DNA from: Jimgerdemannia flammicorona
Lineage: Eukaryota
Length of the DNA stretch: 41,730 bases
Assembly (NCBI GenBank): GCA_003990765.1
Contig: RBNJ01000099.1
Coordinates: 1 to 41,730, forward strand
Reading direction: 5' to 3'
Shown here: piece by piece, positions 3,141-35,538 of the stretch
Layout: every line of letters starts with the position of its first letter
Numbering within the stretch: position 1 is the first letter of the stretch
Translations under genes and position numbers: made by a program
The notes under the pieces: generated by a model
Databases searched by the model: none
Seen by the model: only the letters and a program-made list of their open reading frames with translations
Told to the model about the DNA's origin: nothing

Positions 3141-3159
3141 CTAAATCCTCTATATGACT

Positions 3160-3252: not shown

Positions 3253-3289
3253 ATTTTACTGTTCACTCTAGTAATTTGTTTAAAGAACT

Positions 3290-7181: not shown

Positions 7182-8080
7182 GTAAGGGTGATATTATCAA
7201 AGATTTTGAGTGATCTGAATTAATTCAGATCAATCTGGATTAGATCACAAGACTAATCTAAGTTGATTCAAATCTATCACATAATGAATCTGAATCAAAT
7301 CTCATTTGGATAAATTATATCCATTTGGAGAATTATTCTTAAAGATCTTTTTCCAAAGTATAATAGTAATCTGAAGAATATAGACTTAAAGACCAAAGAT
7401 AGTAATGGTTCAATTTATACTATAGTATGTATTTTTTTACATTTTGTTTGTATATTTATTTAGTAGTTTATGAACTTAACTATTTTTATTTTTATTAAAA
7501 AAAAAATGACTACACTATCAAATTATAATGTACTATTTCTATATTTATAAAGTCATTGATAAAAAGTTTGATTAAATCTTCTCTAATGTAGACCAGCTAA
7601 GATCTATAGCTCCAAAAGATCTTACTTATACTTACCAACAAGTATTACAATATTTGTAAGTCTGGAATAATTTTATTTATTTAAAGAATGACAAGGGTGA
7701 GCTCAGTAAGCCATTCTATAGCAACTATATAAAACAACTACTCTATTTCATATTATTTAAATAGAAATCTTAGTTTATGAATATATTTCAAAAAGATGAA
7801 TATATTAATTATTATATAGTTATCATTATTTATATATTTATATTTATCAGTATATACTTATTTAATATATACTTATTTCTTTATAGCTAAATTATATTGT
7901 CTGGCCTAATACCTTATCAAGAACTTTCAATAAAAGAAAGTATAAGAAAATATATATAAAATAGCTTGAAATGATCAATAAGATTCACAATCATATTGAT
8001 TTACTTGAGATTGAAAAAATAGTTAATAATCTGTACAAAAATATTGACTCAAATAAAGATGACAAGATGATCAATATCTC

Positions 8081-10040: not shown

Positions 10041-11452
10041 ATATACAGAAATTTGAGACTTAGTTTAGAACTGGCAAGTATGGCTACTTAGATAAAAAAA
10101 ATGATAAATAAATATATAGTATTTTTTATCAGAATGGATCTATGACTCAACCATTCCAATTTTCTGAATGACATTTTTAATGTCATCAATAAAATTCAGA
10201 TATTTATTATTGTATAGACAAGATAGAAAGAAATATAAATTATAGTCAATGAAGGATTGTTTTATATAAGCAAAATAGGAATAATGCCATCACTACCTCC
10301 AGTCAGTAATGAAGAGTCCTCCAATAATAGAGAATGAATCTTGATGAAACAAAAAGCTACTGTTAGCACCAAATAAAATACTGAGTACCAAAAGTGATAG
10401 TAACTTTTAAAGAAAGCCAAATAGACTAACAAAGTCAATAAAATACTTCAACAAAATAGTGCTGTCCTTAGATAAGTTTAAGATATAGTTTTTGGACAAA
10501 ACTCAGAGCTAATAAACTTAATCAGAATATACTCTGAATTGTATGAATATACCACTAATACTATCTCTATGAATGCTATTGTGAAAAATCATCTATTTGA
10601 TAAAAAATTGCAATATAATAAACAAATTCAATATAATAAGACTAAGAAAGAATGAAAAATAGTAATCATCCATCTAATCAAAAAAGTAATCTTATCTTAA
10701 TAGAAGAGAAGAAGATTAAAAGTAAAATAATATAGTTAAAGAAGTATATTAGATTTATGATATAACTTCTCACCTAATACTAAACCAGATCTACTATCTA
10801 TAAAGAGTAAGTAAATGAGATTTAACTTAAATATAAAATAATAAGATATATTTACTATACAAAATATATCTATAATGAATCTGAAAACTATACTATAAAT
10901 ACTACTATACTATAAATACTATAAATAATAAATACCACAAATATTATATATAAAAATCTCAATTTATATCAATAAAGATTTGATTTTAATAATCTATAAA
11001 CTCTTATATTATATATAATTTATTATTAAATATATATTCCTAATGCTACTATATACTTCTTAAATAAAAACTGGCCACAATTATAAGTAATACCAAGTTC
11101 ATATAACTGTATTTTTGGTCTATATACTTGGCTATTTAGTCCAACTATATGTTTACAAATAAAATATATATTTAAAAATGTTTCTCTTATGATATGTGAT
11201 CTACATACTTATTTATTAAATATGAATGAAAAGAATATATATTCAATCTACCTGCTAAGTTCTTTTTTACTGAATCACATTCCTCAAACAAGAGTTGTAT
11301 ATATATATACTATATGAATAATTATATCCACAGATATAATATTAAACTGCTCAGTCTATATAGTGATAGCTATTTCTGTCTCATAATTATAAGAGACTAT
11401 GTTTTTAATACTAGTATCCTCAATATCTACTATATTATACTACTCTAAGTAT

Positions 11453-11906
11453 TGTGACAGTACAGCCAAATTTGGAAGAAGGAAATAGGGAATAGACACT
11501 TGATCGCACCAGTCCCAAAGTAGTATAGCCTTATAGTTAGCAGTCTTCGATTTCAACATTGTCTAAATTCTTAGACATTATCCAAATCGAACACCCCAAT
11601 TTAGTATAGCATTTTGACATTGTCTAAATTTCTAGACATTGTCTAAATGACTTATAACTTAGCCACGTAACTCAGTAGCCACCTCATAGCTAGCAAACTT
11701 GTATAAATAACCCAGTATCTTTGAGTGAATAAACCTCAGATCGAAAGTATTAGAAAAAGAACAAGTATACTGATAAAGGGACTTTTGGGATTACCTCTTA
11801 AACACATTTGGCCTCAAGGAACTACTGACTCTGGGAGTCAAGAAGACAAGAATTCAAGATAAAGAAATCCAATGTACTTACCCATCTTAGCATCTGCTAT
11901 GTTACA
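11453..11906 (+). repeat. 5' LTR of element B
   Basis: Direct repeat of 17687-18145; TATAAATA 11702-11709; AATAAA 11728-11733; internal 19-bp GACATTGTCTAAATTTCTA repeats. Confidence 0.97.
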
Positions 11907-11909
11907 ACT

Positions 11910-11958
11910 TGGTGTCTATTGGCTGGTGATTCAAGATGAATCCCTCACTTTCAAGCTA
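11910..11958 (+). promoter_or_regulatory. PBS-like site (TGGTGTCTATTGGCTGG) and conserved leader hairpin
   Basis: TGG 3 nt after the LTR; block conserved in C and D; GATTC-AAGAT-GAATC inverted repeat. Primer tRNA not identified. Confidence 0.7.
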
Positions 11959-12020
11959 AACAATGAACAACCACCACTATCCGAATAACCATACAAACCA
12001 AGTCCCAATACCCAGACAAG

Positions 12021-15000
12021 ATGGATATGAGACCATCAGTATTCCATAGATATACCTCAGATAAATCAATCATTACCTTCATTGACGATTTTGAGCAGTA
12101 TGCTGCTATAAGGACTCTGACAGCAGCACAGCAAGTAGCCCTCATGTCCTTCAGTCTACGAGGCCCTGCCAGAGCAGCATTCACAGCCGCAACCCATGCA
12201 GGAAATGATGCTGATGCCATACTGACAGCACAGAAGACCTGGCTCTGAAATACATATTATATAGACAAGATCAAGCAAGCCCTGAAGGATCAGCTCAAAA
12301 TAATATGCCAAGGAATGAGTGAGGATCCAAACACATTCTATACCAGAATTTGATATCAGATAATCCTTGCAGATTATGCTGCTGCTATCTGAGATCAAGT
12401 AGCCAAAGCAACCTTCATGAAAGGAGTCTATCCAGAAATAGCCATGGCCATCCGCTCATCACCAGTAATTCTGGATCTGCCACAGAAGGTCACCTATGCT
12501 CAGCGATACTGGATAGCCAGACACCCACAAGACCATACAATGGAGAGAGTTACAGGAGTCAGAATTGAGGCACCCAAGGCAATCAGTATGATCCCCACCA
12601 CAATGATCAATTGAAACACACCTCAGCCAAAAGCTACAGAGCAGCAAAAGAACAGTGACCCTATGGAGGAACTCACCAAAAGGTTTGCTGAAATGACTGC
12701 CCACCTGGGAGATGTGGTAAAGGAAATCCAAGGAAGAGATTGTCACCCTGTTCAGAAGTTTGCCGCTACCTCAGACAAGAAGAAAGGTACCTGCTACAGC
12801 TGTAGAGAAGAAGGCCACTACTCCTATAAATGTATGAGTGAAACCAAATGCAAGGCTCAACCAAGCAATACCACACGAAATAAGGAGCAGGCCAATATAA
12901 TCACTTTTGAAGAAATTGGAGAATCTGATGAAGAGGAATGGGAGGCCTATCCTGCTCAGACCACCAAGAAGGATGCTCACAAAGAACCCTACAAAAGACC
13001 GCCAGGAAGACCCAAGAAGAACCCAGTGGAAAAGCAGATGGAAACTGATACAGAAAGCCAAGCTGAAGAGATGGACCAAGATATCAAGCTGGAGCAAGCA
13101 GTTCAAGATATCATCCAAGGAACCACTCTAGCCAGTGAAGGAGAAAAAGAAAAGAAGCTTCGTAAGACCAAGACCTTTAAGTATGATATCTTCAAGGATC
13201 TCAGTCAACAAAAGGTCAATGCAACCTTTGATCAGCTTACAGAAATCCCAACATTCAGACAGCAAATGAGGTTTGGACTTGCCAAAACAACCAAGGAATA
13301 AGGATGGAAGATAACTGAGGCCAATAATATTCAAGAGGACTCAGGAGAAGAAAGTGAGAACAATCACAAAACCTCTGCTTATGTAATATGCCAAATTGAA
13401 GATAGAACCTTTGAAGCTATCATTGATATGTGAGCAGAAAGATGTCTCCTCAGTAAGAAGGCAGCAGACTGCCTAGGTTGAGATGTGGAAGAAGCAACTA
13501 AGCTAGTATTCATCACAGCCGATAGCACAAGAGCTACACCTCTGGGAAAGATCCGAGATGTTCCCATCAAGATCGGAGGAGCAATAATCCCAGTAGATGT
13601 AATCATAACCAATGCCACCAACTATGACATCCTCATTGGCAATCAATGACTTCACAAAGCCAAGGCGGTAATTGATCTCAATGCTCAGAAGATGCAAATC
13701 ACCTATCGGGGACAGAAGATACGAATTCCCATCAATGTCAACAAAGGAGTCCTGTCTGATATAGAGGAAGAAGAGAGTGAGCAAGAGGAAGCTTACATGG
13801 TAACTACTCCAAAGAAGAAGAAAGTTGGATGGATGAGTGAAGAAGAATGGTGCAAGAAGATCACAGAAGGTTATGCCCCACAAGGAGTCTGTCCTCATGG
13901 AATCAAGATATACTATATGGAGCATGTTAACAATTGCTACCAGTGCACCATTGGAACCAAGAAGATCTATCAGGAAAGAAGGCAGAAAGCTCTCGAAAAA
14001 CAGATCAGAGAAGAAGAGAAGAAGGAAGATGACGAACCACCAGTCCTCCTGGAGGACAGTGATGATGAAGAAGAAATCAAGGTCAAGATTCGAAAGATCC
14101 ACCCTAATGCAGTCTTGCTAGAATATAAGTCAGAAAACGCAGCCAGAATAGACATCGCTACAGTAGAAGAAACTGTACTGGAACCCCAGACAACCACCCT
14201 ACTCACAACTGGACTGGAGATGATCATCCCAAAGGATCATGTCAGGATTCTCAAGACAAGAAGTAGCCTGGCTAGAAGCGAAATCACAATTGAAGGAGGA
14301 GTTATTGATTCAGACTCTACTGGAGAAATTCTACTCATTGCTAGGAACCACAATCCTACAATTCCATTCCCAGTCAAGAAGAAGGACCGATTGGCACAGA
14401 TGTTGATCTTCCCAATCATACAGCCAAGGATCATAGAAGTCAAGAATCTGGAGAAAATGAAAAGAGGAAAGAAAGGATTCGGATCCATAGGAAGAGGAGT
14501 ATTCGCCAGCACCAAGATCACCGAACTTGAGCATAAGAAGGAGGAAAACATGAGCAAGTATAGTTATACTATTGGAGATGAATTCCCACTCAAGGAGGAA
14601 CTCAAGAAAATACTCCACAAATTCAAGGATGTCCTTGCCATGGATTTCAAGGATATCAAGGGAAAGACCCCACACTACTATCACGAGGTAGATACTGGAG
14701 ACACCGAACCAATTTACCAGAAGGTAATATCTGTCCCACCAGCCTACTGAGAATGGCTCAGAGAAGAAATCAAGCAGATGGAAGAAGCCAGCATCATCAA
14801 AGAAGCCAGCAGCCCCTGGTCTTCACTAGTTGTACTAGCCCCAAAAAAAGGAAGCAAATCTGGAGAATTTGCCCCAAGGCTCTGTGTTAACTATAGAAAG
14901 CTCAATGTAGTTACTAAGAAGGATCGCCAACCACTGCCGCTTATCAGTGACATCCTTATAACACTGGGAGATGAAGCAGAGTACTACAGCACCCTGGACT

Positions 15001-16013
15001 TATACTCAGGATTTCACCAAATCGGACTCACAGAGATGACAAGTGAAAAGTCAGCCTTCATCACCCCAGACAGAACCTACATCTACCTATGAATGCCATT
15101 CAGAATGTGCAATGCACCAGTAAGCTTTCAGCGAATGATGAACAAAATCTTCCACTATGACATGGGAAGATGGATGATAGTCTATATCGATGATATAATC
15201 ATCTACAGCAAGATACCTGAGGAACATCTGCAGCACATACAGTAGATAATGGAGAGACTAAGACAACATGGCCTTTATATTAAACCCAAGAAGTGCATGT
15301 TTGCAGAAATTGAGATCTCCTATCTTGGCCATATTATCAATCAAGATGGAACATACATGGACCCCCTCAAAATACAAGCAGTAGCAGCATACCCAAGGCC
15401 CACTACTGTCACAGAAGCCCAAGCCTTCATGGGACTCACCTCCTACTATCGCAGATTCATTAGAGGATTCTCCAACATCACAGGTCCAATCTATGAACTC
15501 AACAAGAAGGATATCAAGTTCCAGTAGACTGGCAGACAACAAAAAGCATTTGACGAACTCAAGATCAGACTAACTCAGGCACCCATCCTCAGATGACCCA
15601 ATTGGACCCAAGAATTTATCCTTTAGACAGATGCAAGTATACAGGGACTAGAAGCAGTCCTAGCTCAAAAAGAAGACAAAAAAGAGTATGTCATTGCATA
15701 TCTTAGCCGCGGAACCTGAGGGGCTGAAAAAGAATATGAGTCCTACAAGTTGGAATGCCTTGCAGTCATCTGGGCTGTGGAAAAGTTCCACTACTATCTG
15801 GCTGGAAGACACTCCACCATCCAGACAGACCACTCAGCTCTCATCTGGCTACTGACAACTAGACAACCCAAGGGAATCTATGCCAGATGGATAATGAAGT
15901 TACAAGCCTATGATGTAACCATTGTACACTGCCCTGGAAGAACAAATTCCAATGCAGATGCTCTCTCATAGACACCTTGAACTACCTCCAACCAACAAAT
16001 CAATCATGAATAA
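12021..16013 (+). pseudogene. gag-protease-dUTPase-RT-RNase H polyprotein in a single frame with many nonsense mutations
   Basis: ORF pieces at 12021, 12417, 12663, 13692, 14778, 15249 and 15750 are all in one frame. CYSCREEGHYSYKC knuckle, AIID protease site, dUTPase motifs RSSLA/GGVIDSD/RLAQML/RGKKGFGS, RT LDLYSGFHQI and YIDD, RNase H TDAS...TDH...NADALS. Confidence 0.95.
14076..14495 (+). other. dUTPase domain within pol, between protease and RT
   Basis: All five trimeric dUTPase motifs are recognisable (A.IDI, RSS, GVIDSD, RLAQ, RG..GFGS). Confidence 0.93.
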
Positions 16014-17198
16014 GGAGCTCTACTACAGAATTATCACATACCTGGGACAGCAAAAGATGCCCCAACATCTGGAAGAATGGACACAAATGATTATCAACAG
16101 AACATGGAAACAATTCGAAACTGATAGAGAAACACTGAAGAAAGGAAAACTACTGGTCATACCAGAACACAAGAAGGAGCAAGCGATGAAATCAGTATAC
16201 AAACTTGGCCATCTAGGAGGAACGAATACATATAACAAGGCAAGAAGAACAATATGGTGGCCAGGGATGGAGGAAGATATCAGACAATTTGTCAAGACAT
16301 GCAATAAATGCCAGAAACAGAAATAAGACCAATGGAATCAGGCTCCAGGATCAGCATACATAGAACCAGTACCATTTGCCCATATAGCAATAGATATAAT
16401 CGGCCCTCTACCCTTGATCCTGAGTGGTAACTGATATATCATTGTTATCATAGACCTTTTTATGAAGTGGATAGAAGCAGGACCCCTCAAGGAAGCCAAT
16501 GTACAGTCAATCACTGATTTCTTCCACAAGGAAATCATCTGCCAGTTCAAGACCCCAACACAAGTAACTACAGATAGAGGAACAGAATTTGTGAACCAGC
16601 TCTTTGAGGTTCTCTACAAGAAGTACAAGATCCAGCACATTCGGACCACAGCCTATCACCCCAAGGAAATGGACAAGTAGAAAGGACCAACAAAACCCTC
16701 AAGAATGTCATTGCCAAGATCTGTGATAACTACGAGAACTGGGATCACTATCTGCCAATAGCATTATCTGCTCTCCGGGATATCTGATCACAAAGCACCC
16801 ACTTTACCCCTTGAGAAATACTGTTTGAAGAAGAATATCCTCAAGGAACTCTATCATCCAATGGAGATGCTGTATGGAAACATGTGGACATGGAAATACA
16901 GAGACTATACCAAATCAGGAAGAAGGCTGAGGATTACATAACCAAGGTGCAGGCACTACAATAGAGGAATGCAGAAAAAACCCATAAGCCCTTAGAGATT
17001 ATCAAGATAGGAGACAAGGTCCTAGTGTATTGGAATATGGTAGAAGCTTCATGGTCACGAAAACTGGAGCCTAAGTAGAAAGGACCTTACCTTGTGCAAG
17101 ATATAAAAGGGACCACCTTTTGGCTATGAAAACCCTCAGGCACAATAATCCCCACCACCATTCACCGAAACTGACTCAAGAAATATCATAGTCAGTAA
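16006..17198 (+). pseudogene. Integrase, encoded as a separate ORF in the +1 frame
   Basis: MNKELYYRIITYL..., GHLG...WWPGM...CNKCQ, IAIDIIGPL, TDRGTEF, VERTN, GPY motif. No chromodomain. 1-bp deletion near 16660. Confidence 0.92.
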
Positions 17199-17211
17199 CA
17201 AAAGTACTGCG

Positions 17212-17649
17212 ATGGCACTCAAGATCACTAGTACTACCCAAAGAGCCATCAAAAGACAATGGCACACCACTGAGCCTCTGACCATAGAGGTATACTATGA
17301 GGATATTCAAAGTATCATACAGACTCATCTCTCTTGGATCTCGTACTTTAGAGTCTATCAATATCGGGCAGAATTCCAAGAGTACTTCAAGCTTAGGCAG
17401 GTGCTCAATCAGGATCCAGCAAAGACCAAGGAGGACTGGATTGCCAAGTGTTAACTCTCCCACTCACAGATCACTATTGCTAAAAGGATCCACAAGTTAT
17501 TCTGAGAAGATGAACTAGCAATAGACCACCTGAGAGGAGTAACCCCCACTGACTTTGAGAAAGTGAGGAGACATCATTGGGAAACAGTCATACAGCAAAT
17601 TGCACAGTATAAGACCATACAGATGGTTGAAGCCTGGGAGTTTGAATAG
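17212..17649 (+). pseudogene. 3' accessory ORF (~145 aa), unknown function
   Basis: ATG 13 nt after the IN stop; two internal stops, one of which is CAG in copy C; also present in C. Confidence 0.7.
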
Positions 17650-17675
17650 ATGCCCCAAGGATGAGACCATCTATT

Positions 17676-17685
17676 CAGGAGGAAG
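17676..17685 (+). other. Polypurine tract
   Basis: CAGGAGGAAG just before the 3' LTR. Confidence 0.85.
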
Positions 17686-17686
17686 T

Positions 17687-18145
17687 TGTGACAGTACAGC
17701 CAAATTTGGAAGAAGGAAATAGAGAATAGACACTTGATCGCACCCAGTCCCAAAGTAGTATAGCCTTATATATAGTTAGCAGTCTTCGATTTCGACATTG
17801 TCTAAATTCTTAGACATTATCCAAATTGAACACTCCGATTTAGTATAGCATTTCAATATTGTCTAAATTTCTAGACATTGTCTAAATGACTTATAACTTA
17901 GCTGCATAACTCAGTAGCCACCTCATAGCTAGCAAACTTGTATAAATAACCCAGTATCTTTGAGTGAATAAACCTTAGATCGAAAGTATTAGAAAAAGAA
18001 CAAGTATACCGATAAAGGGACTTTCGGGATTATCTCTTAAACACATTTGGCCTTAAGGAACTACTGACTCTGGAAGTCAAGAAGACAAGAATTCAAGATA
18101 AAGAAATCTGATGTACTTGCCCATCTTAGCGTCTGCTATATTACA
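17687..18145 (+). repeat. 3' LTR of element B
   Basis: Direct repeat of the 5' LTR. Confidence 0.97.
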
Positions 18146-20378
18146 GTATGTAAGTCAATAGACTTAGTAATCTTACTCAATTTTGAAGAGAAGGCAAACT
18201 TGGGCAAAAAGTATTTACTTAATCTTGTCTTATATATCTTAAACTACTTATCTGTGAGATCATACAATACTACTCAGTCATATCATAGACTCTCATAAAA
18301 CTGTTACTTATAGCAAACAAGTTGGCAAAATATAGCTAAATCTAATTTTGTATCCACAAATAGATTATAAACTCTAATTGATAAAGTGATAAAGATTTAA
18401 TCTATAGAGATTAAGGAGATATTAGAAATATTACCAAAAAAGTTTACAGGCTAGCTTATATAAATAACTTACTGTTAGATTTGAAAGTTTGAAAAGATTT
18501 TTCATATTCACTTAATGATGATATTCATTTCTAGATACAAACTAGAGATTATGAAAAAATGTTTGAGTGATAAGTTTGAGATCATATAGCTTAAATAATT
18601 TTGAAACTTCAGTGTACCTTTAAAGATACTAGTACTCAGGTACCAGTATTTCTCAGTTATTAGTGAGCTTGAGATGTCTATGAACTTACTGGTTATAATA
18701 TGATCAAGCTTGTCCTTAAGTACTGTTTGGTACTCTACAAACTTGATAACTTGGAGAAGAGAATTATGTTTATTTATTTATCAATATGGTATCTTAACTT
18801 CTATATAATATTGATGTTTAGTTATCTCTGTATCAGTATTATCTGATATATCAAATGTTCAAGTTGATTTAGAAATATGCTATAGAGTATAGAGTTTTTC
18901 AAGGTTTAGTAAACTTGGTGAGATCTCTGCAACTATTCTTTTAGTTTATTGAATTGAGATAATAGTATATCTTGATCTATAAGTATTTTTTCAGTCTAGA
19001 CTAGTGATGAGATATAGAAGTACCACTTAATAAATATTGTGAGATATTTGATAATATTAAGTAATTTGAAAATCCCTCTCATATATAGAAGGAATATCTT
19101 TTAAATTCTTTTTTTTTTTTAGTTAAATAGTTCACAAACTTACTATAATATATATAATACTTATATATATCAGTTATTGATATTCAGCTATAGTTATTTG
19201 ACTAAGATTTGAAATTCTAATAGAGAATTTTTTGAGCTCAAGATATTAAGAAACAGGTTAAATATAGAGATCTAGCTCTAGTATAAGTAGGTTTGTCAAA
19301 TATGTATCAAATAAACTTTTAATAAGATTAAGAGTTAGATTAACCAGGTATTCTCAGATATATTTTTTCACTTGATGAAATATATTAGATATAATTATTA
19401 AATAAATATTTGTAAGAGGTAGTTTCCATAATATATTCTGGAGTTTAGTTAATAGATAATATAATTATTAGTAAAAAATATTTATTCAAAAACAAGCAAA
19501 ATTAATATATATAGTTAGTCTCCACAATCTACACTCTTGAAGGCTCTTCTCAGCTATTTTATATTTGCCTTTCAAATTGTAAATCTGTGTATTTACAATA
19601 GCTCTCTATATTTCAGGAACTATTTATAGAGGATATATTTTATCAAGATATAAAAATTGCAAGTAAGAGGTCATATATTTTAAGCAGGCTTGATTTATAT
19701 AAATTAGGCAGATTAAACATGCCTTTGGATAATTGACTATAAAGAACATAACTACTAGATAGTAATTATAAATTTTGCTATCTGATTTATATATAATGAT
19801 ACTACTATAAAATATATTTATGATCAACTATCAAATAATAAATTTTTTATTTAAACAATTTTATAATTACAAATATTATCTTTTTCTTACTATTGTAATA
19901 TAGCAGATACTTAATCTTAGAAGTATGTCAGATTTTTGTATCTTGAAAACTTGATCTTCTTTGACTCTATAGAGTCCTCAGAATATAGAGGTGGGTGAGT
20001 TTGAAGTATATCTGCCTGCAGACTTACTAGTTCCTTTGCTTTCTCTTTGCTTTGAACTATTTCAACCTGAGGTTTATTTACTCTAAGATACTGGGTTATT
20101 TATATAAGTTTGCTAGCTATAAGGTAGGTGGCTAAGTTATGAGTTATTTCAAAAGTGTCAAAATATTTTGATATTGTCAAAATACTATACTATATTAGGT
20201 CTTTGATTTCAAATCTTTCAAAATATTTAGAAATTGTTGAAATCAGAGACTGCTAACTATAAGACTATGCTAATTTAGAACTAATAGTGATTAAGTATCT
20301 ATTCTCTATTTCCTTTTTCCAAATTTGGTTCTACTATTACAACTTTCTCCTAAATAGATAGTCTCATCCCTAAAACAT

Positions 20379-20817
20379 CTATTCAAATTCTCAGACCATA
20401 ATAGTCTATATGGTCTTGTACTATATAATCTGTTGTATTACTGTCTCTCAATGGTATCACCTTACTAGCTTGAAATCAGTGGGAGTTATTCATCATAAGT
20501 AGGCTAGTACTGGTTCATTATCTCAGAATAACTTATAAATTCTTTTAGCAATAGTGATTTATGAATAGAAGAGCTGACACTCTGTGATCTAATTATCCTT
20601 GGTCATTTCTGGGCTCTTATTAAGTATCTGTTCAAGTTTGAAGTACTCTTGGAACTCTGTCCAATAGTGGTAGACCTTAAAGTGTAAAATTTTGAGAGAG
20701 ATGAGTCTATATGATACTTTGGATACTATCATAAGATTCTTCTATAGTTGGAGGTTCTGTGGTATACTATTGTCTCTCAATGGCTCTTTGAGTAGTACTA
20801 GTGATCTTGAATACTAT
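20379..20817 (-). pseudogene. Accessory ORF of element C
   Basis: Colinear with 17212-17649 (ITIAKRIYKLF...ITPTDFK). Confidence 0.7.
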
Positions 20818-20830
20818 TGCTGTGCTTCAG

Positions 20831-22016
20831 TTATTGGCCATAGTTCTTCTTGAGTCAGTTTTGATGAATAGTAGTTTGTGCCTGAGAGTTTTCATAGCCA
20901 AAATGTGGTCTCTTTTATATATTGCACAAGGTAAGGTCCTTCTCACTTAGGCTCCAGTTTTTATGACCATAAAGCTTCTACTATATTCCAATATATCAGA
21001 ATCTTATCTCCTATCTTAATAATCTCCAGAGGCTTATAAATCTTTTCTGCATTATTCTGCTATAGTGCCTGCACCTTGGTTATATAATCCTTAGCCTTCT
21101 TCCTGATTTGGTATAATCTCTGTATTTCTCCATCTACATATTTCTATATAGCATCTCTATTAAACAATAGGGTTTTTTGAGAACTTTCTTTTCTGAACAG
21201 CATTTCCCAAAAAGTGAAATGAGTGCTTTGTGATTAAATATCCCAGAGAGTAGATAATGCTATTAGTAGATAGTGATCCCAGTTTTCATAGTTATTACAG
21301 ATCTTGGTAATAACATTCTTGAGGGTCTTGTTGGTTCTTTCTGTTTATCTATTTTCTTGAGAATGGTATACTATAGTCTGAATATACTGGATCTTGTACT
21401 TCTTGTAGAGAACCTCAAAGAACTAGTTCATGAATTCTGTTTCTCTGTCTATGGTTACTTGTATTGAGGTCTTGAACTGGCAGATAATTTCTTTATGAAA
21501 GAAATTAGCAATTGACTGTGCATTGACTTCCTTGAAGGATTCTGCCTCTATCTATTTCATGAAAAGGTCTATGATGATAATAATATATTGGTTGTCAGTC
21601 AAGGTCAAGAGTAGAGGGTCAATCACATCCATTACAATATAGACAAATGGTACTAGTTCTATATATGCTGATCTTGGGGCTTAATTTCATTAATCTTGTT
21701 TCTATTTCTAATATTTATTGCAGATCTTGACAAATTGTCTGATATCTTTCTTTATTTCTGACTACTATATTGTTCTTCTTGCTTTATTATATATGTTTAT
21801 TCCTTCTAGATAGCCAAGTTCATATATTGATTTCATTACTTACTCTTTCTTGTGTTCTGATATGACTAGTAGTTTTTCTTTCTTTAGTATTTCTCTATCA
21901 GTTTCAAATTGTTTCTATGTTCTGTTGATAATCATTTGTGTCTATTCTTCCAGATGTTGGGGAATTCTTCACTGTTCCAGATAGGTAATAATTCCATAGT
22001 AGAGCTTCTTATTTAT
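20831..22016 (-). pseudogene. Integrase of element C
   Basis: Colinear with the B integrase; start codon decayed to ATA. Confidence 0.85.
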
Positions 22017-25000
22017 GATTGATTTGCTAGTTGGGAGTCCTTTAGAGTATCTATGAGAGAGCATTTACATTGACATTGGTTCTTCCTGAGCAGTACTTAA
22101 TAGTTATGTCATATGCTTACAACTTCATAATCTATCTGATATAGATTCCTTTAAATTGCCCAGTGGTCAGTAACTAAGTAAGAGCTAAGTAGTCTATCTG
22201 AATAGTGAAGTATCTTTTAGTAAGATAGTAGTAGAACTTCTCTACAGCCCAGATGACTGCAAGACATTCCAACTTATAAGATTCATATTCTTTTTTAGCT
22301 CTTTGGGTTCCTTGGCTTAGATATATAATGACATACTTCACTTTATCTTTCTTTTGAGCTAAGACTATTCTTAGTTCTTGAGTACTTATATCTATCTGCA
22401 GAATGAATTCTTGAGTCCAATTAGGTCTTCTGAGGATGGGTGTCTGGGTCAGTCTGACCTTAAGCTCATCAAATACTTTTTGTTGCCTACCAGTCTATTG
22501 GAACTTAGTATTCTTCTTATTGAGTTTGTAGATTGAACCTATAATGTTAGAGAATCCTCTGATAAATCTTTGGTAATATGAGGCAAGTTCCATAAAGACT
22601 TGGGCTTTAGTAACAGTAATAGACCTTAGATATGCTATTACTGCTTATATCTTGAGAGGATCAGTGTATATTCTATCTCAATTAATGATGTGTCCAAAAT
22701 AAGAGATCTCAATTTCTATAAATTTACATTTCTTGGGCTTAATATATAGGTCATGCTTTCTCAGCTTTTCTATTATCTGCTAGATGTACTGTAGATATTC
22801 CTCTGATATCTGGCTGTAGATAATTATATTATCTATATAAACTATTATTTATCTTTCTATATTATAGTAGAAGATTTTGTTCATCATTCACTGGAAACTT
22901 ACTAGTACATTGCATATTCTAAATAACATTTGCAGATAGATATAGATTCTATCTGGGGTGATGAAGGCTGATTTCTCACTTGCTGTTTCTGTGAGTTTGA
23001 TTTGGTGAAATCCTAAATATAGATCCAAAGTACTATAGTACTATACTTTATCTTCCAGAGTTATAAGAATATCACTGATAAGAGACAGTAGTTGTCAATC
23101 CTTCTTGGTGACTACATTGAGCTTTCTGTAATCAATACAGAGTCTTGGGATAAATTCTCCAGACTTGTTTCTTTTTTTTGGAGCTAGTATAACTAGTAAA
23201 GACTAGGGGCTATTGGCCTCCTTAATGATACTAGCTTCTTCCATCTGCTTGATTTCTTCTCTGAGCTACTCTCAGTAGGCTGACAGGACAGATCTTACCT
23301 TCTGGTAAATTGGTTTGGTATCTCCAGTATCTACATTATAATAATAGTATAGACTCTTTTCTTTGATATCCTTGAAGTTTGTAATAAGGACATCCTCAAA
23401 TTTATAGAGTATTTTCTTGAGCTCCATATTGAGTGGGAATTTATTTCCAATAGTATAGCTATGCTTATTTGTAGTTTTCTCCTTCTTGTACTCCAGCTTA
23501 ATAATCTTGATACTAGTGAATACTCCTCTTTCTGTAGATCTGAATTTTTTTTTTTCTCTCTCTGTTTCCTTCAGCTTCTTAACTTCTATGATCTTTAGTT
23601 GTAGGATCAGAAAGATCAGTATCTATACTGACCAGTCCTTCTTCTTAACTGGAAAAGGTATTGTAAAATTATAGTTCCTAGTAATGAGTAGGATTTCTTC
23701 AGTATAATCTGAATTGATGACTCCTCCTTCAATTATAATTTCACTCTTAGCCAGACTGCTTCTTGTCTTGAGGATCCCAACATAATCCTTTAGGATTGTC
23801 ATCTCCATGCTGATTATAAGTAGAGTAGTTATCTGAGATTCAAGTACAGTTTTCTCTACTATAGTAATATCTATTCCAGCTATATTTTCTAACTTGTATT
23901 CTGGTAGGACTATATTAAAATGAATCTTTTGAATCTTGATCTTGATTTCCTCTTCATCATTACTGTCTTTGAGAAGAGCTAGTGGTTTATCATCCTTTTC
24001 TTCTTTTATTTTCTTCTCTTCTCTTATCTGTTTCTCAAGGGCCTTCTCTCTTTTTTGATAGTAGATCCTTGATTTTGCCAGTATACTGGTAACACTCATT
24101 GATATGCTCTATACAGTATATTCAGATCCCATAGGGGCAGACTTCTTATAGTGCATATTCTTTCATAATCTTCTTATACCAGTCTTCTTCACTCATCTAT
24201 CTAATTTTCTTCTTCTTTTTCTGAGTTATTACTATATAGACTTCTTCTTGTTTACTATCTTCTTCCTCTATCTTAGGCAAGACTCCTTTGTTGATATTGA
24301 TGGAAATTTGCATCTTCTGTCTATAATAGATGATCTGTATCTTCTAAACATTCAGATCAATTACTGTCTTGACTTTATAAAGTTACTGATTACTGATGAG
24401 GATATCATAGTTGGTTGCATTGATCATGATTATATCTACTAAAATGGTTGCTCCTTCAAACTTGATGGGAATATCTCAGATCTTTCTCAGAGGTGTGACT
24501 CTTATGTATACTATCTGCTGTGATGAATACCAATTTAGTTGCCTCTTCAACTTTCCAATCTAGGTAGTCTGCTGCTTTCTTGCTGAGGAGGCATTCTCTT
24601 GCTCTTATATCAATAATAGCCTCAAAGACTTTATTCTTGATTTGACAGATTGCATAGGCAGAGATCTTACAGTTGTCTTTACTTTCTTCTCCTAAGTTCT
24701 TTTGAACATTGTTAGCCTCAGTTATCTTCCATTCTTACTCCTTGATTGTTTTGGTAAGTTCAAATCTCATTTGTTATCTGAATGTAGGGATTTCTACCAG
24801 CTGCCCAAAGGTTGCATTGATCTTTTATTAACTAAGATCCTTGAAGATATCATACTTGAAGGTCTTAGTCTTGCAAAGCTTCTTCTTCTTTTCTCTTTTA
24901 CTGACTAGAGTAGTTTCTCAGATGATATCTTGAACAGCTTGTTCTAGCTCCATATCTTGATTCATTTCTTTATATTGACTTTCTGTAGCAGTCTCTATCT

Positions 25001-26015
25001 GCTTTTCCACAGAGTTCTTCTTGAGTCTCTCTGATAGTTTCTTGTAGAGTTGTTTACAGACATCTTTCCTAATAGTCTCAGCAGAGTAGGCTTTTCATTC
25101 CTCTTCATCTGATTTCTCAATCTCCTCAAAGGTGATAATATTGACCTGTTCCTTATTTCAAGTAGTATTGCTTGGCTGTACCTTGTGCTTGATTTCACTC
25201 ATATATTTATATGAGTAGTGGTCTTTTTCTCCACAAGTGTAGCAGGTATCTCTCTTCTTATCTAAGGTAGTAGCAAATTTCTGAACTAAGCAGCAGTCTC
25301 TTTCTTTAATTTCTTTTATCACATCTTCTAGGTGGGCTATCATTTTAGCAAACTTCTTGGCAAGTTCCTCTATGGGGTCACTATTTCTCTGATATTCAAT
25401 AGCTCTTGGTTGAGGTGTATTTCAATTGATCACTATAGTAGATATCATACTGATTGTTTTGAGTGCTTCAATTCTGACTCCAGTGACTCTCTCCATTATA
25501 TAGTCTTGTAGATGTCTGACTGTTCAGTATTGCTAAGTATAGATGACCTTTTGTATCAGATCTAGGACTATTGGTGATGAGTGAATGGCCAGAGCTATCT
25601 CTGAGTAGATTTCTTTCATGAAGGTTACTTTAGCTACTTGATCTCTGATAGTGGTAGTATAATCTGCAAGAATTATCTGATATCAGATTTTGGTATAGAA
25701 TGTATTTAGATCCTCACTCATTTCTTAGTATATTATATTAAGCTAATTCTTCAGTATCTGCTTAATCTTATCTATATAGTATGTAGCTTAGAGCCAGGTC
25801 TTCTATATTGCTAGTATAGTATAATTATTATTTTCTACATAGGTTGTAGATATGAATGCTGCTCTTGCTGGTCCTTGGAGATTGAAGGGCATGAGGGTTA
25901 CTTGCTACCTTGCTATCAGACTCCTTACAGTGACATATTGTTTAAAATCATCAATAAAGATAATAATTGACTTATTTAAAGTATAACTGTAGAATACTGG
26001 TGGTCTCATATCCAT
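22009..26015 (-). pseudogene. gag-PR-dUTPase-RT-RNase H of element C
   Basis: CYTCGEKDHY knuckle remnant; dUTPase fragment in ORF 23623-24099; colinear with B. Confidence 0.9.
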
Positions 26016-28224
26016 CTTGTCTGGATATCTTAGTTCAATTTATATGGTTGTTTTAGTAGTAGCAGTTGTTTATTGTTCAGCTTGAAAGTGAGGGATTTAT
26101 TTTGAATTATCAGCTAATAGATACAAAGTTATAATATAGTGGATGCTTAACCTTAGAAGTACATCAGATTTTTGTATCTAAAAAACTTGATCTTCTTTGA
26201 CTCTATAGAGTCCTCAGAATATAGAGGTGGGTAAGTTCAAAGTATATCTGTCTATAGACTTACTAGTTCCTTTGCTTTCTCTTTGTTTTGAACTATTTCA
26301 ATCTGAGATTTATTCACTCTAAGATACTGAGTTATTTATATAAGTTTGCTAGCTATAAGGTGGGTGACTAAGTTATGAGTCATTTTGAAAGTGTTGAAAT
26401 ATTTTAATATTGTTAAAATGTTATACTATATTAGGTCTTTGATTTTGAATCTTTTAAAATATTTAGAAATTATTGAAATCAGGGACTACTAACTATAAGG
26501 CTATACTAATTTGGGACTAGTAGCAATCAAGTGTCTATTCTCTATATTCTTCTTCTAAATTTGGTTCTACTATCATACTATAGATAGTTCACAAAGTACC
26601 CATGACATATATCTATAATATAAAACTGTTTTCACTTTATAGAAAAAGTCTTTTTTGATCTCCTTGGGAGTCCCTTTAATAATTAGAAAATATGTAATTA
26701 CTGGGAATATATTTTGTAAGTATGTTTGTCAAATACATTTAGAGAGATTACTAATAGAAATATATAGTAGATATATTTTAGTATATCCAAGCAGATTACA
26801 ATATATTTAGTCAATTTCAAGTAATACCAGAATTACTATTGCACTAAGTGGGAGTTTTTTCTATAGCTTAAAAAAAGAATTATAGTCTGCAAATAGTGAG
26901 TATACTGACTAATTACCTGCAAACTTAAAATTAATTATTATTTTACCTGTGTTTGCTATCAAAAATCACTCTAATATACATATCTTAGAGTACTTTCATA
27001 TACTATCTGCCATATAGTATTTCTTTACTTTAAATTTCATATTATCCTTGAATAAAGTATTTGACATCAGCTTATATAAAATAGTAAGTAGATCTCAATA
27101 GAATAGCATATATTCACTAGTCTAAGTTTTGGATATATAAGTAATGTTAAAAACTTTATAATTGAAGAGCTAATTTAAAAAAGAGAATTACTGAATGTTC
27201 ATCAATTTAATAGGAATATTAACTGTTTAATTATATATCACTCTATTTTTAACTACTATATCTAAAAGTTTTATCATCTCTCTTAAATTTGTAAACTAGA
27301 GAGACCTATTCATTATTAAAATTCTTCTATCTATAAATATATTAAGAAGTTCATCTGCAACCTTTTGGGATATATTTCTACTTTGAAATAATAGATTTAT
27401 AAGCCAAATTTCTCAATTATTCTTCTAAAAATATATATAAAGGATTGTTTACATTAGTTGTAGATACTCATCTAAGTTTAGAAATAAATTCATTATGCAT
27501 TATAAGTGTTTTTTTGCTATTGATAATCTGACCACCAGTTGGTTTATAGATAATATGATCCTTGCCAAACTCTAATATAGTAGATGAGCTTCTCTGATCT
27601 TGAATTGAATTATCATTTTTACTAAACAATGAGTTTTTCTATTCTTAAATTGGAGATAGATCATCATTACTGATATTATCTTGAATTATATATATATACT
27701 TAGTATGATTATCTGAAATCTTTTAAGTTCATTTATATAGATTGCTTAAACTTGAAATATATATAGAATTCAAGGTTAACTTATAAACTATTGATAAATT
27801 TATAGATAATAGTAGTATAATATTAAAGTTACTAAAATCTTAACAAATTGAAAATTCAAGAATAGACTTGTCATTCTGATATTGTGTAAGTATATCATAT
27901 ATCTTTCACATATATCAAGTCAATCCTGAGGCAGATTTGTACTTTTGATTACAATATGAGCAAAAAAAACTTCATATTGATATTAGGTTTGAAGTAGAGA
28001 AGAATTTGAAGAATAATATGAATTTTGATAGTAAGTTCATAATCACAAAACATACTGATTTATATATCTGAAAGATGATAAGGATAAGCTTAGCAAGCTA
28101 TTCTATAATAACTATATAAAATAAGTACTCTATTTCATATTCTTCAAATAAAAACCTCAGTTTGCAAATATTTTTCAAAAAGATAAACATATTAACTATT
28201 ATATAGTTGCTGTTATTTATATAT

Positions 28225-29738
28225 TGTCATATAGTGGTCGCTGAGTCCTTCAAATATACCAGATTCTCTTCAAGGTATATCTCTTAGACTAACTCAAGTT
28301 TATTATAAGCAAGTTCTTATTGGAGTATCTTCTTAAGGTCTTATAGTCCTCAAACTTCTTATCTTTAACTATCTTGTTATTTCTTAGATTGCTTGCAAGA
28401 AAGTATGTATAAGTGAAACTGGAACTGACTTTATTTCAGAGGAAATAAGAGGGGTATTTATACAAAATATAATTCAATAGTTGCTAATATATAAAGTTAA
28501 ATATAAATTCTAATAACTAAAACTACTAAGTTCCAGGGTTGGCACTGATGGTTATATAGGTTCAGGATGCTGATATAATTCAGTGTCACATCAGAATACC
28601 AGTACTGGAACAATTTTGCGTCACCTCAGAATGTCAGTGCTGGCATTATCCAGTGTTACATCAAAATACCAGTGCTGACATTATTCAGTATAACAAAGAA
28701 CTTAGAGCAGAAAGTTCAGGATCATGGGGGCTTCATCCTCATCATCACTGAAGGAGATGAGATCTGTGAATTTGTCATATTTGCATGCTTTGATATCATA
28801 CAAGATAACATTATCACTGATGATATCATCATGTTTGGCAGCAGGAAGGAGGTCTGGGGCTCTCTAGTCTATAAGGTTCTCTTCTACAAAATAGGGGACA
28901 AATGTGGGGTCTTGGGAAGATCTAACCCAGATGCTTGGACCTTGAAATACTGAGATCAATCCTTGCAGGAATTGGTCTAGGTTGTCTTGGAGAATGGGGT
29001 GCCAGAAGTCTTCTACTTCATCACTATTGAGGGTGATAGTGGACTGAGCTTCTGTAGTCACTCTGGCTTCTAGTATATTGATATGGTGAGATGACAGGTC
29101 TCTGAAATCTGAGACTCTAACATACTCTAAGTTGGGGATTGACCATGGTGCATGCCTGAAGATCTGATGGATCTTCTTAGCTATCCTTGTTTCATGTATA
29201 TCCATGGGAGTGGCATCTTGTAGCTCTTGAGTGCTAGCCTGTGGGAACTCCTGGCAGAGGAGGTTTCCTATTTCATACTCCTGCCATATTTGGAGGTATT
29301 CGGTAGCAATAGTGATCCTTGTTTTCATTTTACAGTAGTAGAGGATAAAGTGATAGGGATCTGCAGTACCCAGGTTGACACTAGGAGTCCTTCTTGAGCA
29401 GGTCCTCATGGCTCTTCTGATATCTTAAAACATCCTTTCCTCAACTGAGATGCCTTGGTGATTCCTTAACCTTGAGGTTTGGTAGGCAGCAGGCATTTTG
29501 TTTGTGGTAAGTCTTTGAGCTATTTTGGGATTAGTGGTTCTTGTTGGTTGCTGCTACTGTGGTTCCTTGATCCTTCTTTTATATTCTTCAGGATGCTTAT
29601 ACTGTAGTCACAATGACTTGTAGTTGGTCATCATTGCTTATCTCATATGCCATATGATCTTCTTGTGCTCTGATCTGATAGCTTGTAAGGAAAGGCTGTC
29701 TCCTGTACTGATGTCATCATTCTGGGGTCACTGTTATA
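28225..29738 (-). repeat. 3' LTR of element D (inner boundary inferred from the PPT)
   Basis: PPT CAGGAGGAAG at 29740-29749 (-), identical to B, followed by TATAACAG (cf. TGTGACAG); TATAAATA ~28455-28462 (-); AATAAA 28430-28435 (-); ~33-bp tandem repeats 28565-28695. Confidence 0.7.
28702..29409 (-). CDS. LTR-internal accessory ORF of D, unknown function
   Basis: 181-aa ORF 28864-29409, extendable through one TAG to TAA at 28702; QEYEIGNLL...IAKKIHQIF...IPNLEYVRVSDF resembles the B accessory ORF. Confidence 0.65.
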
Positions 29739-30051
29739 TCTTCCTCCTGAATAAGGATCTTCTTGAGCATCCTTATTCATTGGTCTAGTCCTGAAAAATT
29801 TGCTGATCCTATAACCTCTGGCAAGGGGTTGAAAAGTAGTATTTATGAGCTGGTGTCTTCTCTTTGTATTTTGGCATAATGGTGAAGAGTTGCTCCCTTC
29901 ATATAGAGTAAGGGCCTGATTCTGATCTTGACCAATCAGTTGATGGTTTGAACTCCTCTGACTTTGAAAGTCTCATGGATGAGTAGTTGCCAGTACTGTA
30001 TCCCTTAGAGAATGGTCCAGACAGATAGCCTGCTGGTCATGGGACATGCTG

Positions 30052-31297
30052 TTATGATTTGTAGACTAGAACCTCATGGGTGGTTATCACATTTTGCTTC
30101 TCTTGTATAGGTTCGTGGTACTTCTTGAGTCTATTCCTATGTACTGTGGTAGGCAGTATGGTCCCTGAGATTTTTCTAAGCCAGAAGGTGGTTCTCTTGA
30201 TATCTTGTACATAGAAGGGTTCTTCCCATTTGGACTCCAGTTTTCATAACCATGAGGCTTCTACTATATTTCAATTAGTAGAATCTTTTCTCCAATTTGG
30301 ATGGGTTTTAGGGCCTTGTGATTCTTTTCCACATTCTTCCTTGTCAGCACTTGTGACTTGGTGATGTAATCTTCAGCTTTCTTTCTAATTTGATATAGTC
30401 TCCAGATTTCTGCATCAACTTATCTCTAAGTTAGGTCTAGATTTATGGCTGAGGTTCCATCAGAATCTTCTTCTCCAAAGAGCAGCTCTCTTGGGGTAAA
30501 GTGTGTACTCTATGACTGTATGTCTCATAGGACAGAGAGGGTGGTTGGGAGATAGTTATCCCAATTCTCATATGTCTTTGAGATTTTCACTAGAATGTTC
30601 TTAAGGGTCTTGTTGGTTCTCTCTGTCTGTCTATTTTCTTGAGGGTGGTACACAGTGGTCTTTATGTACTGGATCTTGTATTTCTGATACATTATCTCAT
30701 AGAATCCATTGACAAATTCCATACTGCAGTCTGTTGTGATTTGCTTTGGTGTCTTGTAGTGGCAGATGATTTCTTGGTATAGAAAGTCAGCTATAGAGAG
30801 GGCATTGGCTTCTTGTAATGCTCCTGCCTCTATCCATTTAGTGAAGAGGTCTACAATAACTAGAATATAGTGATTTCTTGATAGTGTTACTAGTAGTGGT
30901 CCAATGATATCTATTGCAATGTAGTGGAAGAGGATAGGCTCAATTCTTGATGACCCGGGTGTCTGGTCTTACTGATCTTGTTTTTATTTTTGGTACTTGT
31001 CATACCCTTTGACAAATTGGCACAGATCTTCTTCTATCTTGGGCCACTATATAGTTCTTCTTATCTTATCATATATGTTGGTTCCTCCTAAGTATCCTTG
31101 CTCATGTACTTTCTTCATTACTTGATACTTCTTGTGTTCGAGTATTACTAGCTTTCCTCCTTTTCTAAGTATAGTGTTATCTAGTTCAAACTGTTTCCAA
31201 GTCCAGTTGATGATAGTGGTTGTCCAGGGTTCAGGTGGTTAGATATCTTCTGCTGTCCAAGGTAGCTGATTAATCCATAGTATAGCTCCTTATTCAT
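30052..31297 (-). pseudogene. Integrase of element D, separate ORF
   Basis: MNKELYYGLISYL..., IAIDIIGPL, YHPQ..RTNKTL; 1-bp deletion near 31230. Confidence 0.9.
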
Positions 31298-34200: not shown

Positions 34201-35312
34201 GGAGTAGTGCCTTCAATGATTTGGTAGGCAACTTCATCTAACTCCATGTCTTGATCAATCTCCTTGGGTTGGGTCTTGCTTTGAATAGTGACAGCTGGAG
34301 TCTTCTTTAGTCTTCCAACTGGCTTGCTGTTGCTCTTCTTGTCATAGGGCTTGGACCAGGTTCTGATACCTTCAGTAGCAGGGTAGAATTCAAGCTCTTT
34401 GTAGTATTCTTCATCATCAGTGTCACCAATCTCCTCGATGACTACTGCATTAGTTTGTTCTCTGGTTCTGCTAGCATTGCTTGGTTGGGCTTTGCATCTC
34501 ATTTCAGTCATGCAACTCTTTGCATAGTGGCCTTCTTCTCCATATCTGAAGCATGTGATATTGCATTCTTCTATAGCAGCTGCAAATCTCTGCACTGGTC
34601 TCCTGTTGGTGCTTCGGACTTCTCTAACAACATCACTAAGATATGTAGTCATCTTGGCGAACTACTTGGTAAGTTCTTCCACTGAGTCAGCTTTGGCTAT
34701 CTTGGGGGTAGGTGGGGTTGGTTGTCTGTTTACAACTGTGGCAGGTATGATACTAGTTGGCTTTGATGGCTCCATCTTGATGTCAGTTATTTTCTCCATT
34801 GAGTGTTTGACAGAGTGTCTGGCAGTCCAATATCTCTGTGCAAAGACCACTTTCTGATCAAGGATCAGTGCAGCTAGGGTAGACTGGATTGCTAGGGCAA
34901 TTTCAGGGTGAACTTCTTTGAGGAAAGTTGAATCTGCTATTTGTTCCTTAAGGCAGTCATCATAGTCAGCTAAGACAATCTGGTGGCAGATTTGGATATA
35001 GAATGAGTTGGGATCTTCACTAAGTCTCTGATAGATAGTATTGAGTTGATCCTTGAGAGCTTGCTTGATCTCTTCAGTATAGTATGTTGTTCTGAAGAAG
35101 GCCTTCATGTTGACAAGTTTGGCTGCACCAGTATTAGCAATGGTGGCTGCATTGAACTTATCTCTGGCAGGTTCTCTGAGGCTGACTGGTAGAAGGGCCA
35201 ATTGTGCATCTACACCAAGGGCTCATATGATGGTGAATTGTTCAAAGTCTTTAATGAAGGTCAGGATTGACTCTTTAGTAATATATTAGAATGTGGGGGG
35301 GTATATTTCCAT
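31290..35312 (-). pseudogene. gag-PR-dUTPase-RT-RNase H of element D
   Basis: AIIDTSA protease site, GGVIDPNYTGEI dUTPase, LDLFSGFYQI RT, RNase H ending NADVLSRIPQNTPIKTIQHE*. Confidence 0.93.
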
Positions 35313-35431
35313 CTTGTCTTGAATTCTTACAGGGTAACTCTTGTAGTCAGAGTAGTTGTTATGGGGGTTGTTCATTTTTCAGCTTGAAAGTGAGGGATTC
35401 ATCTTGAATCACCAGCCAATAGGCACCAAGT

Positions 35432-35538
35432 TGTCATGTAGTAGTCACTGAGTCCTTCAAATACACCAGATTCTCTTCAAGGTATATCTCTTATACTAAC
35501 TCAAGTTTGTTATAAGCAAGTTCTTATTGAAGCCTTCC
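35432..35538 (-). repeat. U5 end of the 5' LTR of element D
   Basis: Matches 28225-28330; followed on the minus strand by ACTTGGTGCCTATTGGCTGG. Confidence 0.9.

Follow-up and report, generated by a model that had tools for sequence, protein, structure and literature searches.

How does a long terminal repeat (LTR) retrotransposon express an integrase (IN) that lies out of frame with the rest of its pol gene, and is such an arrangement a lesion or a working design? The question is raised by three elements, here called B, C and D, in a 41,730-nt stretch of the genome of Jimgerdemannia flammicorona (assembly GCA_003990765.1, contig RBNJ01000099.1, positions 1 to 41,730 of the forward strand; hereafter the window). 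In textbook LTR retroelements and retroviruses, integrase enters the particle within Gag-Pol, and enzyme dosage is set at the gag/pol boundary. In B, C and D, integrase is read in a different frame from the RNase H (RH) that precedes it. The explanation that best fits the sequences compared here, and one that we consider reasonably probable, is that these elements come from a clade with a split pol in which integrase would be made by stop-restart translation.

The RNase H/integrase junction in elements B, C and D

All three elements are decayed, dead copies of Ty3/gypsy-type LTR retrotransposons (Table 1). Each has an LTR pair, and the domain order protease (PR)-reverse transcriptase (RT)-RH-integrase, with matches to RVT_1, RT_RNaseH, Integrase_H2C2 and rve, is supported by Pfam in B, D and intact relatives; the Ty3/gypsy feature that is missing is an integrase within one continuous Pol. 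The LTRs of B (11452-11906 and 17686-18145) are 94% identical to each other and those of C (19893-20342 and 26129-26575) 89%. C is 78% identical to B along its entire length, is low in GC and has many stops in its frames. The interior of D is ~70% identical to B; its LTR pieces (28224-28322 and 35431-35529) are 94% identical over 99 nt and, as a preliminary description of this DNA had stated, are unrelated to those of the other two elements, with no BLAST match to B or C LTRs at E 1e-10.

In B, Pfam matches to dUTPase (1.7e-22), RVT_1 and RT_RNaseH fall in one frame together with the CCHC knuckle of gag, and matches to Integrase_H2C2 and rve fall in another. The dUTPase family (PF00692) is also matched in C and D, in D along with RVT_1 within 32169-33320. 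The gag-PR-dUTPase-RT-RH frame attributed to B in the preliminary description does end at the TAA of the junction (16011-16013), but it is not open: 13 in-frame stops lie inside it, two of which (15969 and 15978) fall within the RH tail. The integrase of B is open for 106 codons (16006-16323), which include the H2C2 zinc finger; stops occur thereafter, and a 1-base length difference near 16660 shifts the tail of the rve core to another frame.

The junction itself is built as first described. In B, the pol stop starts 5 nt past the A of the integrase ATG, and integrase begins with MNKELYY in the +1 frame, giving the overlap at 16005-16013. The sequence CATGAATAAGGAG has exactly two occurrences in the window, at 16005 (+) and 31298 (-), the second being the junction of D, where the RH frame (31775-31290) terminates in ...IQHE-stop. 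The RH tail is of equal length in the two elements (14 codons past the NADxLS motif). C retains the same phase in CATAAATAAGAAG at 22017 (-), with the ATG changed to ATA. An alignment of B, C and D has one internal gap only, the private 1-base deletion of D after 31233 that had been reported ~22 codons into integrase and falls at codon 22; there is no indel between NADxLS and the ATG in any of the three. Because the sole gap lies inside integrase, the phase is common to all three elements, and B, C and D share a +1 phase change exactly at CATGAATAA.

The coding signature of B versus D switches frame at this junction. Upstream of it, the RH frame has a ratio of non-synonymous to synonymous differences per site (pN/pS) of 0.31, compared with 1.03 for the integrase frame; over the 142 codons past the ATG, the integrase frame has the low value (0.28), and the remaining frames reach 1.10 and 1.30. 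The differences beyond the junction had been called mostly synonymous. Per site this is true (pS 0.63, pN 0.15), but a plain count over the first 21 integrase codons that can be compared gives 7.0 synonymous against 8.0 non-synonymous differences.

Contigs of four public runs (three from soil metagenomes or similar and one from a coded organism, A; being contigs, they have no bearing on expression) cover the B junction with 0 gaps, the length differences listed for them all lying near 16660. Among them, B's two RH-tail stops are private to B. One contig each of runs X3 and X7 joins 15892 to 16005, skipping 112 nt, a joint that would bring the RH frame into phase with the integrase ATG. With 26 letters on its shorter side and AA..AT ends, this joint was rejected as an intron and treated as an alignment artefact of diverged relatives.

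Intact relatives keep integrase in a separate frame

Relatives were searched for with the 106-codon integrase start of B and the 161-codon RH end of D. For the locus scan, an alignment of 22 sequences proved too diverse and one of 5 sequences was used. Scanning of metagenome contigs yielded 80 loci; in 19 of them the match to integrase begins at residue 1 (30-78% identity). An RH motif lies upstream in 18 of the 19, which are informative; the upstream DNA of the remaining locus (L035) is degenerate. The RH frame differs from the integrase frame in all 18 informative loci, and none of them has RH and integrase in one open frame, the arrangement in intact copies that the preliminary description had named as the mark of an inherited lesion. 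In 16 of the 18, as in B and D, the first base of the pol stop lies between -5 and +8 nt from the A of the ATG. Run on 42 more distant loci (26-35% identity, L035 included), the same script finds RH and integrase in one frame in 33.

The open reading frames (ORFs) of the relatives are long on both sides of the junction. The upstream ORF has 1281 codons in L001, 1493 in L012, 1651 in L007, at least 1577 in L008 and at least 1746 in L009; the integrase ORFs are intact at 371-543 codons, with about 410-430 being typical of the clade. Three intact loci, L009 (gag-pol of at least 1746 codons, integrase of 418), L012 (1493 and 371) and L002 (an upstream ORF of at least 830 codons, integrase of 419), keep the split, which supports the earlier proposal of an ancestral expression strategy. 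Pfam matches to the gag knuckle (CCHC), PR, dUTPase, RT and RH all fall within the upstream ORF of the relatives, and in L001, L007, L009 and L012 these domains make up a single ORF. The dUTPase was found in 6 of the 7 upstream ORFs scanned, the exception (L015) being cut at the contig start. None of the 5 integrase ORFs tested for a chromodomain matches PF00385 at E <= 1e-4.

Predicted proteins agree with the locus scan. The search for stand-alone integrases with MNKELY-type starts, suggested in the preliminary description, turned up P0214, an intact integrase of 415 aa that begins MNKELYY. P0197 (536 aa), P0005 and P0196 end in ...TIQHE like D, and the N-terminal extensions of P0215 and P0198 are the +1 reading of the RH tail; P0197 and P0214 are D-like, while P0198 is B-like. 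These comparisons place B, C and D in a distinct Ty3/gypsy-type clade with a long gag-PR-dUTPase-RT-RNase H ORF and a separate integrase ORF, and the split pol is almost certainly the ancestral, functional arrangement of that clade.

Some relatives have features of their own. The integrase ORF of L006 (1838-3466) has 543 codons, ~120 more than the others. In L010, a 229-codon ORF (1315-2004) overlaps the integrase end and a second long gag-pol-like ORF follows (2508-7400), an arrangement that could be due to tandem elements or to a permuted assembly; the flank is another element, not host genes. The contig ends of L009 (1-140 and 8087-8226) and L004 (1-99 and 7846-7944) repeat at 99-100% identity, as would fit either young elements whose LTRs are nearly identical or the collapse of several copies during assembly.

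Integrase start codon and selection

In an exhaustive search of representative proteins, 22 match from query residue 1, all of them of 423 aa or less; proteins of more than 1000 aa match the zinc-finger part only, from residue 36, with the exception of P0140, which matches from residue 9. The start Met is invariant in all 22 aligned proteins, including 7 in which the called start lies further upstream. Since these 7 keep the Met behind an upstream extension, the gene caller cannot have imposed it. A search with P0214 returned 232 proteins at E <= 1e-30, and 116 new ones were examined: 87 begin at the Met, 4 are extended and keep it, 0 are without it and 25 are without the N-terminus, so that the start Met is present in 91 of the 91 further proteins with a readable N-terminus. 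At the DNA level, the integrase ATG is conserved in 19/19 loci; the ATA of C belongs to a dead copy. The projected start position is occupied by Met in 0 of 32 fused relatives, five of which align from model position 7-8 and have the homologous helix without the Met.

Among pairs with estimable dS, the ratio of non-synonymous to synonymous substitution rates (dN/dS) of integrase is 0.08-0.20, and in the other pairs pN is far below pS; for the upstream ORF, dN/dS is 0.11-0.15. Integrase and the upstream ORF are both under purifying selection. Kept in intact copies and under selection, the split, as read from these sequences, is not an inherited lesion.

Junction forms and reading phase

Junctions of the clade take six forms, spread across both reading phases (Table 1; L008/L009 and L004/L007 are near-duplicate pairs). 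Counted in codons, the nearest integrase-frame stop upstream of the ATG is at 1 in L024, 6 in L015, 8 in L054, 9 in L003, 10 in L014 and 11 in L008. Two loci, L011 and L023, keep TAATG/TGATG and have an additional stop 92 and 86 nt, respectively, upstream of the ATG; their integrase is intact (430 codons, dN/dS 0.08). In these two related loci, the extra stop stands directly after NADALS(R) (L011, 360-460; L023, 200-300).

An integrase tree was built with 41 rows, of which the 21 that are split or stand-alone group together, and the split group as one clade is not rejected (p = 0.61, approximately unbiased test, p-AU). Within the split clade, the reading phase switches at least 3 times on this tree and the stop moves at least 6 times. 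The tree is a quick one with several long outgroup branches, and its change counts are more secure than its exact topology.

Table 1. Coordinates of elements B, C and D in the window, and junction forms of the split clade by locus.
Feature	Position or loci	Strand	Description and basis
Element B	11452..18145	+	decayed LTR retrotransposon; self-BLAST, direct repeats
B gag (CCHC knuckle)-PR-dUTPase-RT-RNase H frame	12615..16013	+	translation, stop list, Pfam
B tract before ATG	15961..16005	+	45 nt, 4% G, C/A-rich, almost structure-free
B junction CATGAATAA	16005..16013	+	integrase ATG 16006-16008; pol stop TAA 16011-16013
B integrase remnant	16006..17300	+	translation, Pfam
Element C	19893..26575	-	LTR retrotransposon; self-BLAST
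C junction CATAAATAAGAAG	22005..22017	-	phase as in B; start codon ATA
Element D	28224..35529 (approx.)	-	LTR retrotransposon; self-BLAST
D integrase remnant	30116..31297	-	1-base deletion after 31233 (codon 22), then many stops
D junction CATGAATAAGGAG	31286..31298	-	ATG A at 31297; integrase in +1 frame
D RT-RNase H frame end	31290..31775	-	last 161 codons open, ending ...NADVLSRIPQNTPIKTIQHE-stop
D tract before ATG	31298-31342	-	G-poor, C/A-rich, near structure-free
ATGA	L003, L008, L009, L024		integrase phase -1
TAATG or TGATG	L006, L010, L015		integrase phase -1
Stop, 2 nt, ATG	L018, L054		integrase phase -1
ATGAATAA or ATGAATAG (ATG-2nt-stop)	L001, L012, L014, B, D		integrase phase +1
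ATG, 4 nt, TAG	L004, L007		integrase phase -1
ATG, 5 nt, TGA	L002, L013		integrase phase +1

Proposed translation of integrase by termination-reinitiation

We favour, with moderate confidence, translation of integrase by coupled termination-reinitiation at the AUG adjoining the pol stop. Ribosomes terminating on the gag-pol ORF would reinitiate at the adjacent integrase AUG ('stop-restart'), so that integrase would be made as a free protein, in a lower amount than Gag-Pol and without protease release from a polyprotein. As the preliminary description had suggested, such an integrase may need a particle-entry route of its own. The stop/start would stand in both for the RH/IN cleavage site and for the usual gag-pol frameshift as a dosage control. 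Three mechanisms had been offered at the outset, namely stop-restart, a +1 frameshift and a subgenomic RNA; the occurrence of both phases, the ATGA/TAATG overlaps and the invariant AUG favour the first and disfavour the +1 frameshift. In particular, reinitiation is preferred to frameshifting because the adjacency of stop and start survives the phase changes, because the AUG is invariant and because integrase-frame stops lie just 1-11 codons upstream in six loci. The formula given for reinitiation cassettes in the consulted part of a published review is AUG-Nx-stop, UAAUG or AUGA, and the junction spacing of the clade fits it (PMC5972666).

Two kinds of sequence precede the junctions. In nine of the 11 -1-phase loci, the 45 nt that lead up to the AUG hold a hairpin ranking no higher than the 5.6th percentile when set against coding background from the locus itself; it stands 5-10 nt upstream of the AUGA, UAAUG or UGAUG junctions of L006, L010, L011, L023, L015, L009, L003 and L024. 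Within these 45 nt (1790-1835 in L006, 130-175 in L010), L006 and the L010 group differ by 5 compensatory pairs. The seven +1-phase junctions, including those of the window, are near structure-free (72nd-100th percentile), and their tracts are G-poor (4-13% G vs. 18-23% in the background) and C/A-rich; the -1-phase locus L007 also has a G-poor, C/A-rich, near structure-free tract. Folds of the whole 103-nt junction have unremarkable z-scores in 14 of 15 cases, L010 alone reaching -4.67. Enriched upstream 5-6-mers (CTCTC, AATACC, CCCAAG and similar) were considered as a signal and rejected, being largely due to the conserved coding of ...ALSRIP and ...LPKG.

Several points weigh against coupled reinitiation, or against the data from which it is argued. 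Reinitiation after an ORF of 1300-1750 codons normally requires a tethering element. The UGGGA (TGGGA) motif of caliciviruses and influenza B occurs in 0 of 17 junctions within 100 nt upstream, and there is no upstream signal common to all loci, most of the -1-phase loci having the hairpin and the B family an unstructured G-poor tract. L011 and L023, with their early pol stops, argue that tight coupling of stop and start is not strictly needed. The ATGA and ATGAAT-type stops follow in part from the conserved Met-Asn start of integrase. Finally, the comparison sequences are all metagenome contigs, some of which are perhaps chimeric assemblies of multi-copy elements.

Alternative explanations

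Integrase could instead be translated from an mRNA of its own (spliced like env, or from an internal promoter) or by internal ribosome entry, the adjacency of stop and start being a matter of genome compaction. We regard this as unlikely, although it accommodates L011 and L023, which keep a selected integrase with a pol stop 86-92 nt earlier and so count against coupling. The unstructured, C/A-rich tract before the AUG in the window's family could serve for internal entry, and LTR elements typically express their extra ORFs by way of spliced messages, according to the part of a study of such elements consulted here (PMC5408684). Neither route, however, obliges the stop to remain within 8 nt of the AUG while the arrangement changes at least 6 times. 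Moreover, the junctions, judged by eye, have no conserved AG acceptor in the last 30 nt before the AUG, and the only contig joint is that between 15892 and 16005, with its AA..AT ends and its 26 letters on the shorter side.

A programmed frameshift (+1 in the window's family, -1 elsewhere) that fuses RH to integrase in a Gag-Pol-IN polyprotein is improbable. In B, L001, L012, L002 and L013, the integrase frame stays open for 29-67 codons ahead of the ATG, a shift at the terminal GAA-TAA in the window's family would continue into KELYY, and LTR elements routinely use +1 and -1 shifts at their gag-pol boundary, as described in the literature (PMC5009743). Against this, a single clade contains both phases and has switched between them at least 3 times; the overlaps go down to 1-4 nt and, in the junction listing judged by eye, hold no common shift heptamer; in six loci, the integrase-frame stop and the ATG are just 1-11 codons apart; and in L018 and L054 the stop comes before the ATG. 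The integrase-frame reading upstream of the ATG has no coding signature (B vs. D pN/pS of 1.03 and 1.17), and frameshifting would leave the invariant AUG without an explanation.

That the phase change is an old lesion in non-autonomous copies that use integrase in trans from fused-pol elements suits the state of the window, in which all three copies are dead, the B frame has 13 stops and the LTRs of B, C and D are 6-11% diverged, but it is scarcely credible given the many relatives with intact long ORFs on both sides of the junction, an integrase dN/dS of 0.08-0.20 at saturated synonymous divergence, and more than 100 distinct stand-alone integrase ORFs that start at the same Met. Two further candidates were rejected: stop-codon reassignment, since all three stop codons are used at the junctions and integrase lies in another frame; and a short intron joining RH to integrase, there being no GT..AG pair of plausible length and the distance from RH to the zinc finger being that of fused relatives.

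Comparison with known systems

Canonical fused-pol Ty3/gypsy elements have the same domain order as the split clade, and their integrase is homologous to that of the clade, the N-terminal helix that precedes the HHCC finger included. Caulimoviruses are reverse-transcribing relatives of Ty3/gypsy elements in which tightly abutting ORFs, pol among them, are translated by reinitiation and not as a fusion; they have a dedicated viral transactivator protein and no integrase. No transactivator-like factor is evident in the split clade. In foamy viruses, Pol is made independently of Gag and must reach the particle or the cDNA by its own interactions; there, the whole of Pol is made from a spliced mRNA, whereas in the split clade integrase alone is separate and adjoins the pol stop.

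The bdelloid rotifer elements Juno, Vesta and TelKA and the dUTPase-bearing Ty3/gypsy elements of basidiomycetes likewise have a dUTPase placed after PR and before RT, a gag of the CCHC type and an integrase that lacks a chromodomain, as far as they are described in the sections drawn on (PMC5408684; PMC2864245). Their pol is described there as canonical PR-RT-RH-IN, and most of the rotifer families are described as having a gag-pol frameshift (PMC5408684). The split clade differs from both groups, as far as these descriptions alone set them apart, in having gag-pol as one ORF and integrase apart. As a lead only, the ESM Atlas cluster nearest to the integrase consists of stand-alone integrases of 407 aa, most of them from Rotifera, and clusters from Mucoromycota come next.

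Stop and restart codons that overlap or stand a few nt apart are also found in caliciviruses, in influenza B, in victoriviruses and hypoviruses, and in the non-LTR element SART1; the signal of caliciviruses and influenza B is the termination upstream ribosome-binding site (TURBS). In these systems, the downstream protein is needed in smaller amounts, and some, such as the victoriviruses, have an upstream structure without UGGGA, to be compared with the hairpin of most -1-phase loci here (these points after the consulted sections of PMC5972666). The window's own family has no upstream structure. The split clade, known from sequence only, is also unlike the viral and SART1 cassettes in that the upstream ORF is an LTR gag-pol of 1300-1750 codons and the restarted product would be integrase. 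No LTR element is listed in those sections of the 2017 review of reinitiation (PMC5972666), and we found no description of a split between RH and IN in LTR elements in open-access full text, a scope that leaves aside figures, supplements and Repbase entries.

Other features of the window

The private differences of B from other copies are nearly all transitions (T>C, A>G, C>T, G>A), and both RH-tail stops (15969-15980) are of the transition type; C (19893-26575) has a GC content of just 0.32-0.35 and many stops. The decay of B and C looks like the deamination type (similar to repeat-induced point mutation, RIP, or methylation-linked), as judged from base-change classes.

A solo-LTR-like copy with 88-89% identity to the B LTRs is present at 5942-6406 (-), and the 2.3 kb at 4867-7181 have a second, 78-80% identical copy at 35644-37555, adjoining D. 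A GC-rich ORF at 1404-2480 (+) has a weak RVT_1 match (E 7e-4, under the Pfam cut-off), and four large ORFs (195-389 codons) without a Pfam family lie at 37663-41728 (+); the ORFs of these two regions may belong to other retroelements. Pfam searches of the other large ORFs (390-1403, 8866-9345 and 37663-41728) gave no family and identified no host gene, and Rfam and tRNA scans of the window found nothing.

Significance

Integrase is the one protein that the split clade encodes separately, and selection has held the stop/start junction in front of it tight through repeated phase changes. A wider reading of these sequences, whose chances we put at about even, is that an unnamed, widespread clade has given up the Gag-Pol-tethered integrase, that it would practise stop-restart after a 4-5 kb ORF by means of signals other than TURBS (a hairpin or a G-poor tract), and that its free integrase must then find the reverse-transcription complex. 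For annotation, transposable element pipelines that expect a fused pol will score split elements as frameshifted or non-autonomous. If reinitiation is indeed the mechanism, eukaryotic stop-restart would extend to LTR retroelements, after an unusually long upstream ORF; on the wider reading, no LTR retroelement would have furnished such a cassette before. The junctions would then offer short, naturally varied cassettes for studying post-termination ribosome retention. How a free integrase reaches the cDNA would become a testable question, and, again on the wider reading, the clade would constitute a natural experiment on how much integrase must travel with the particle.

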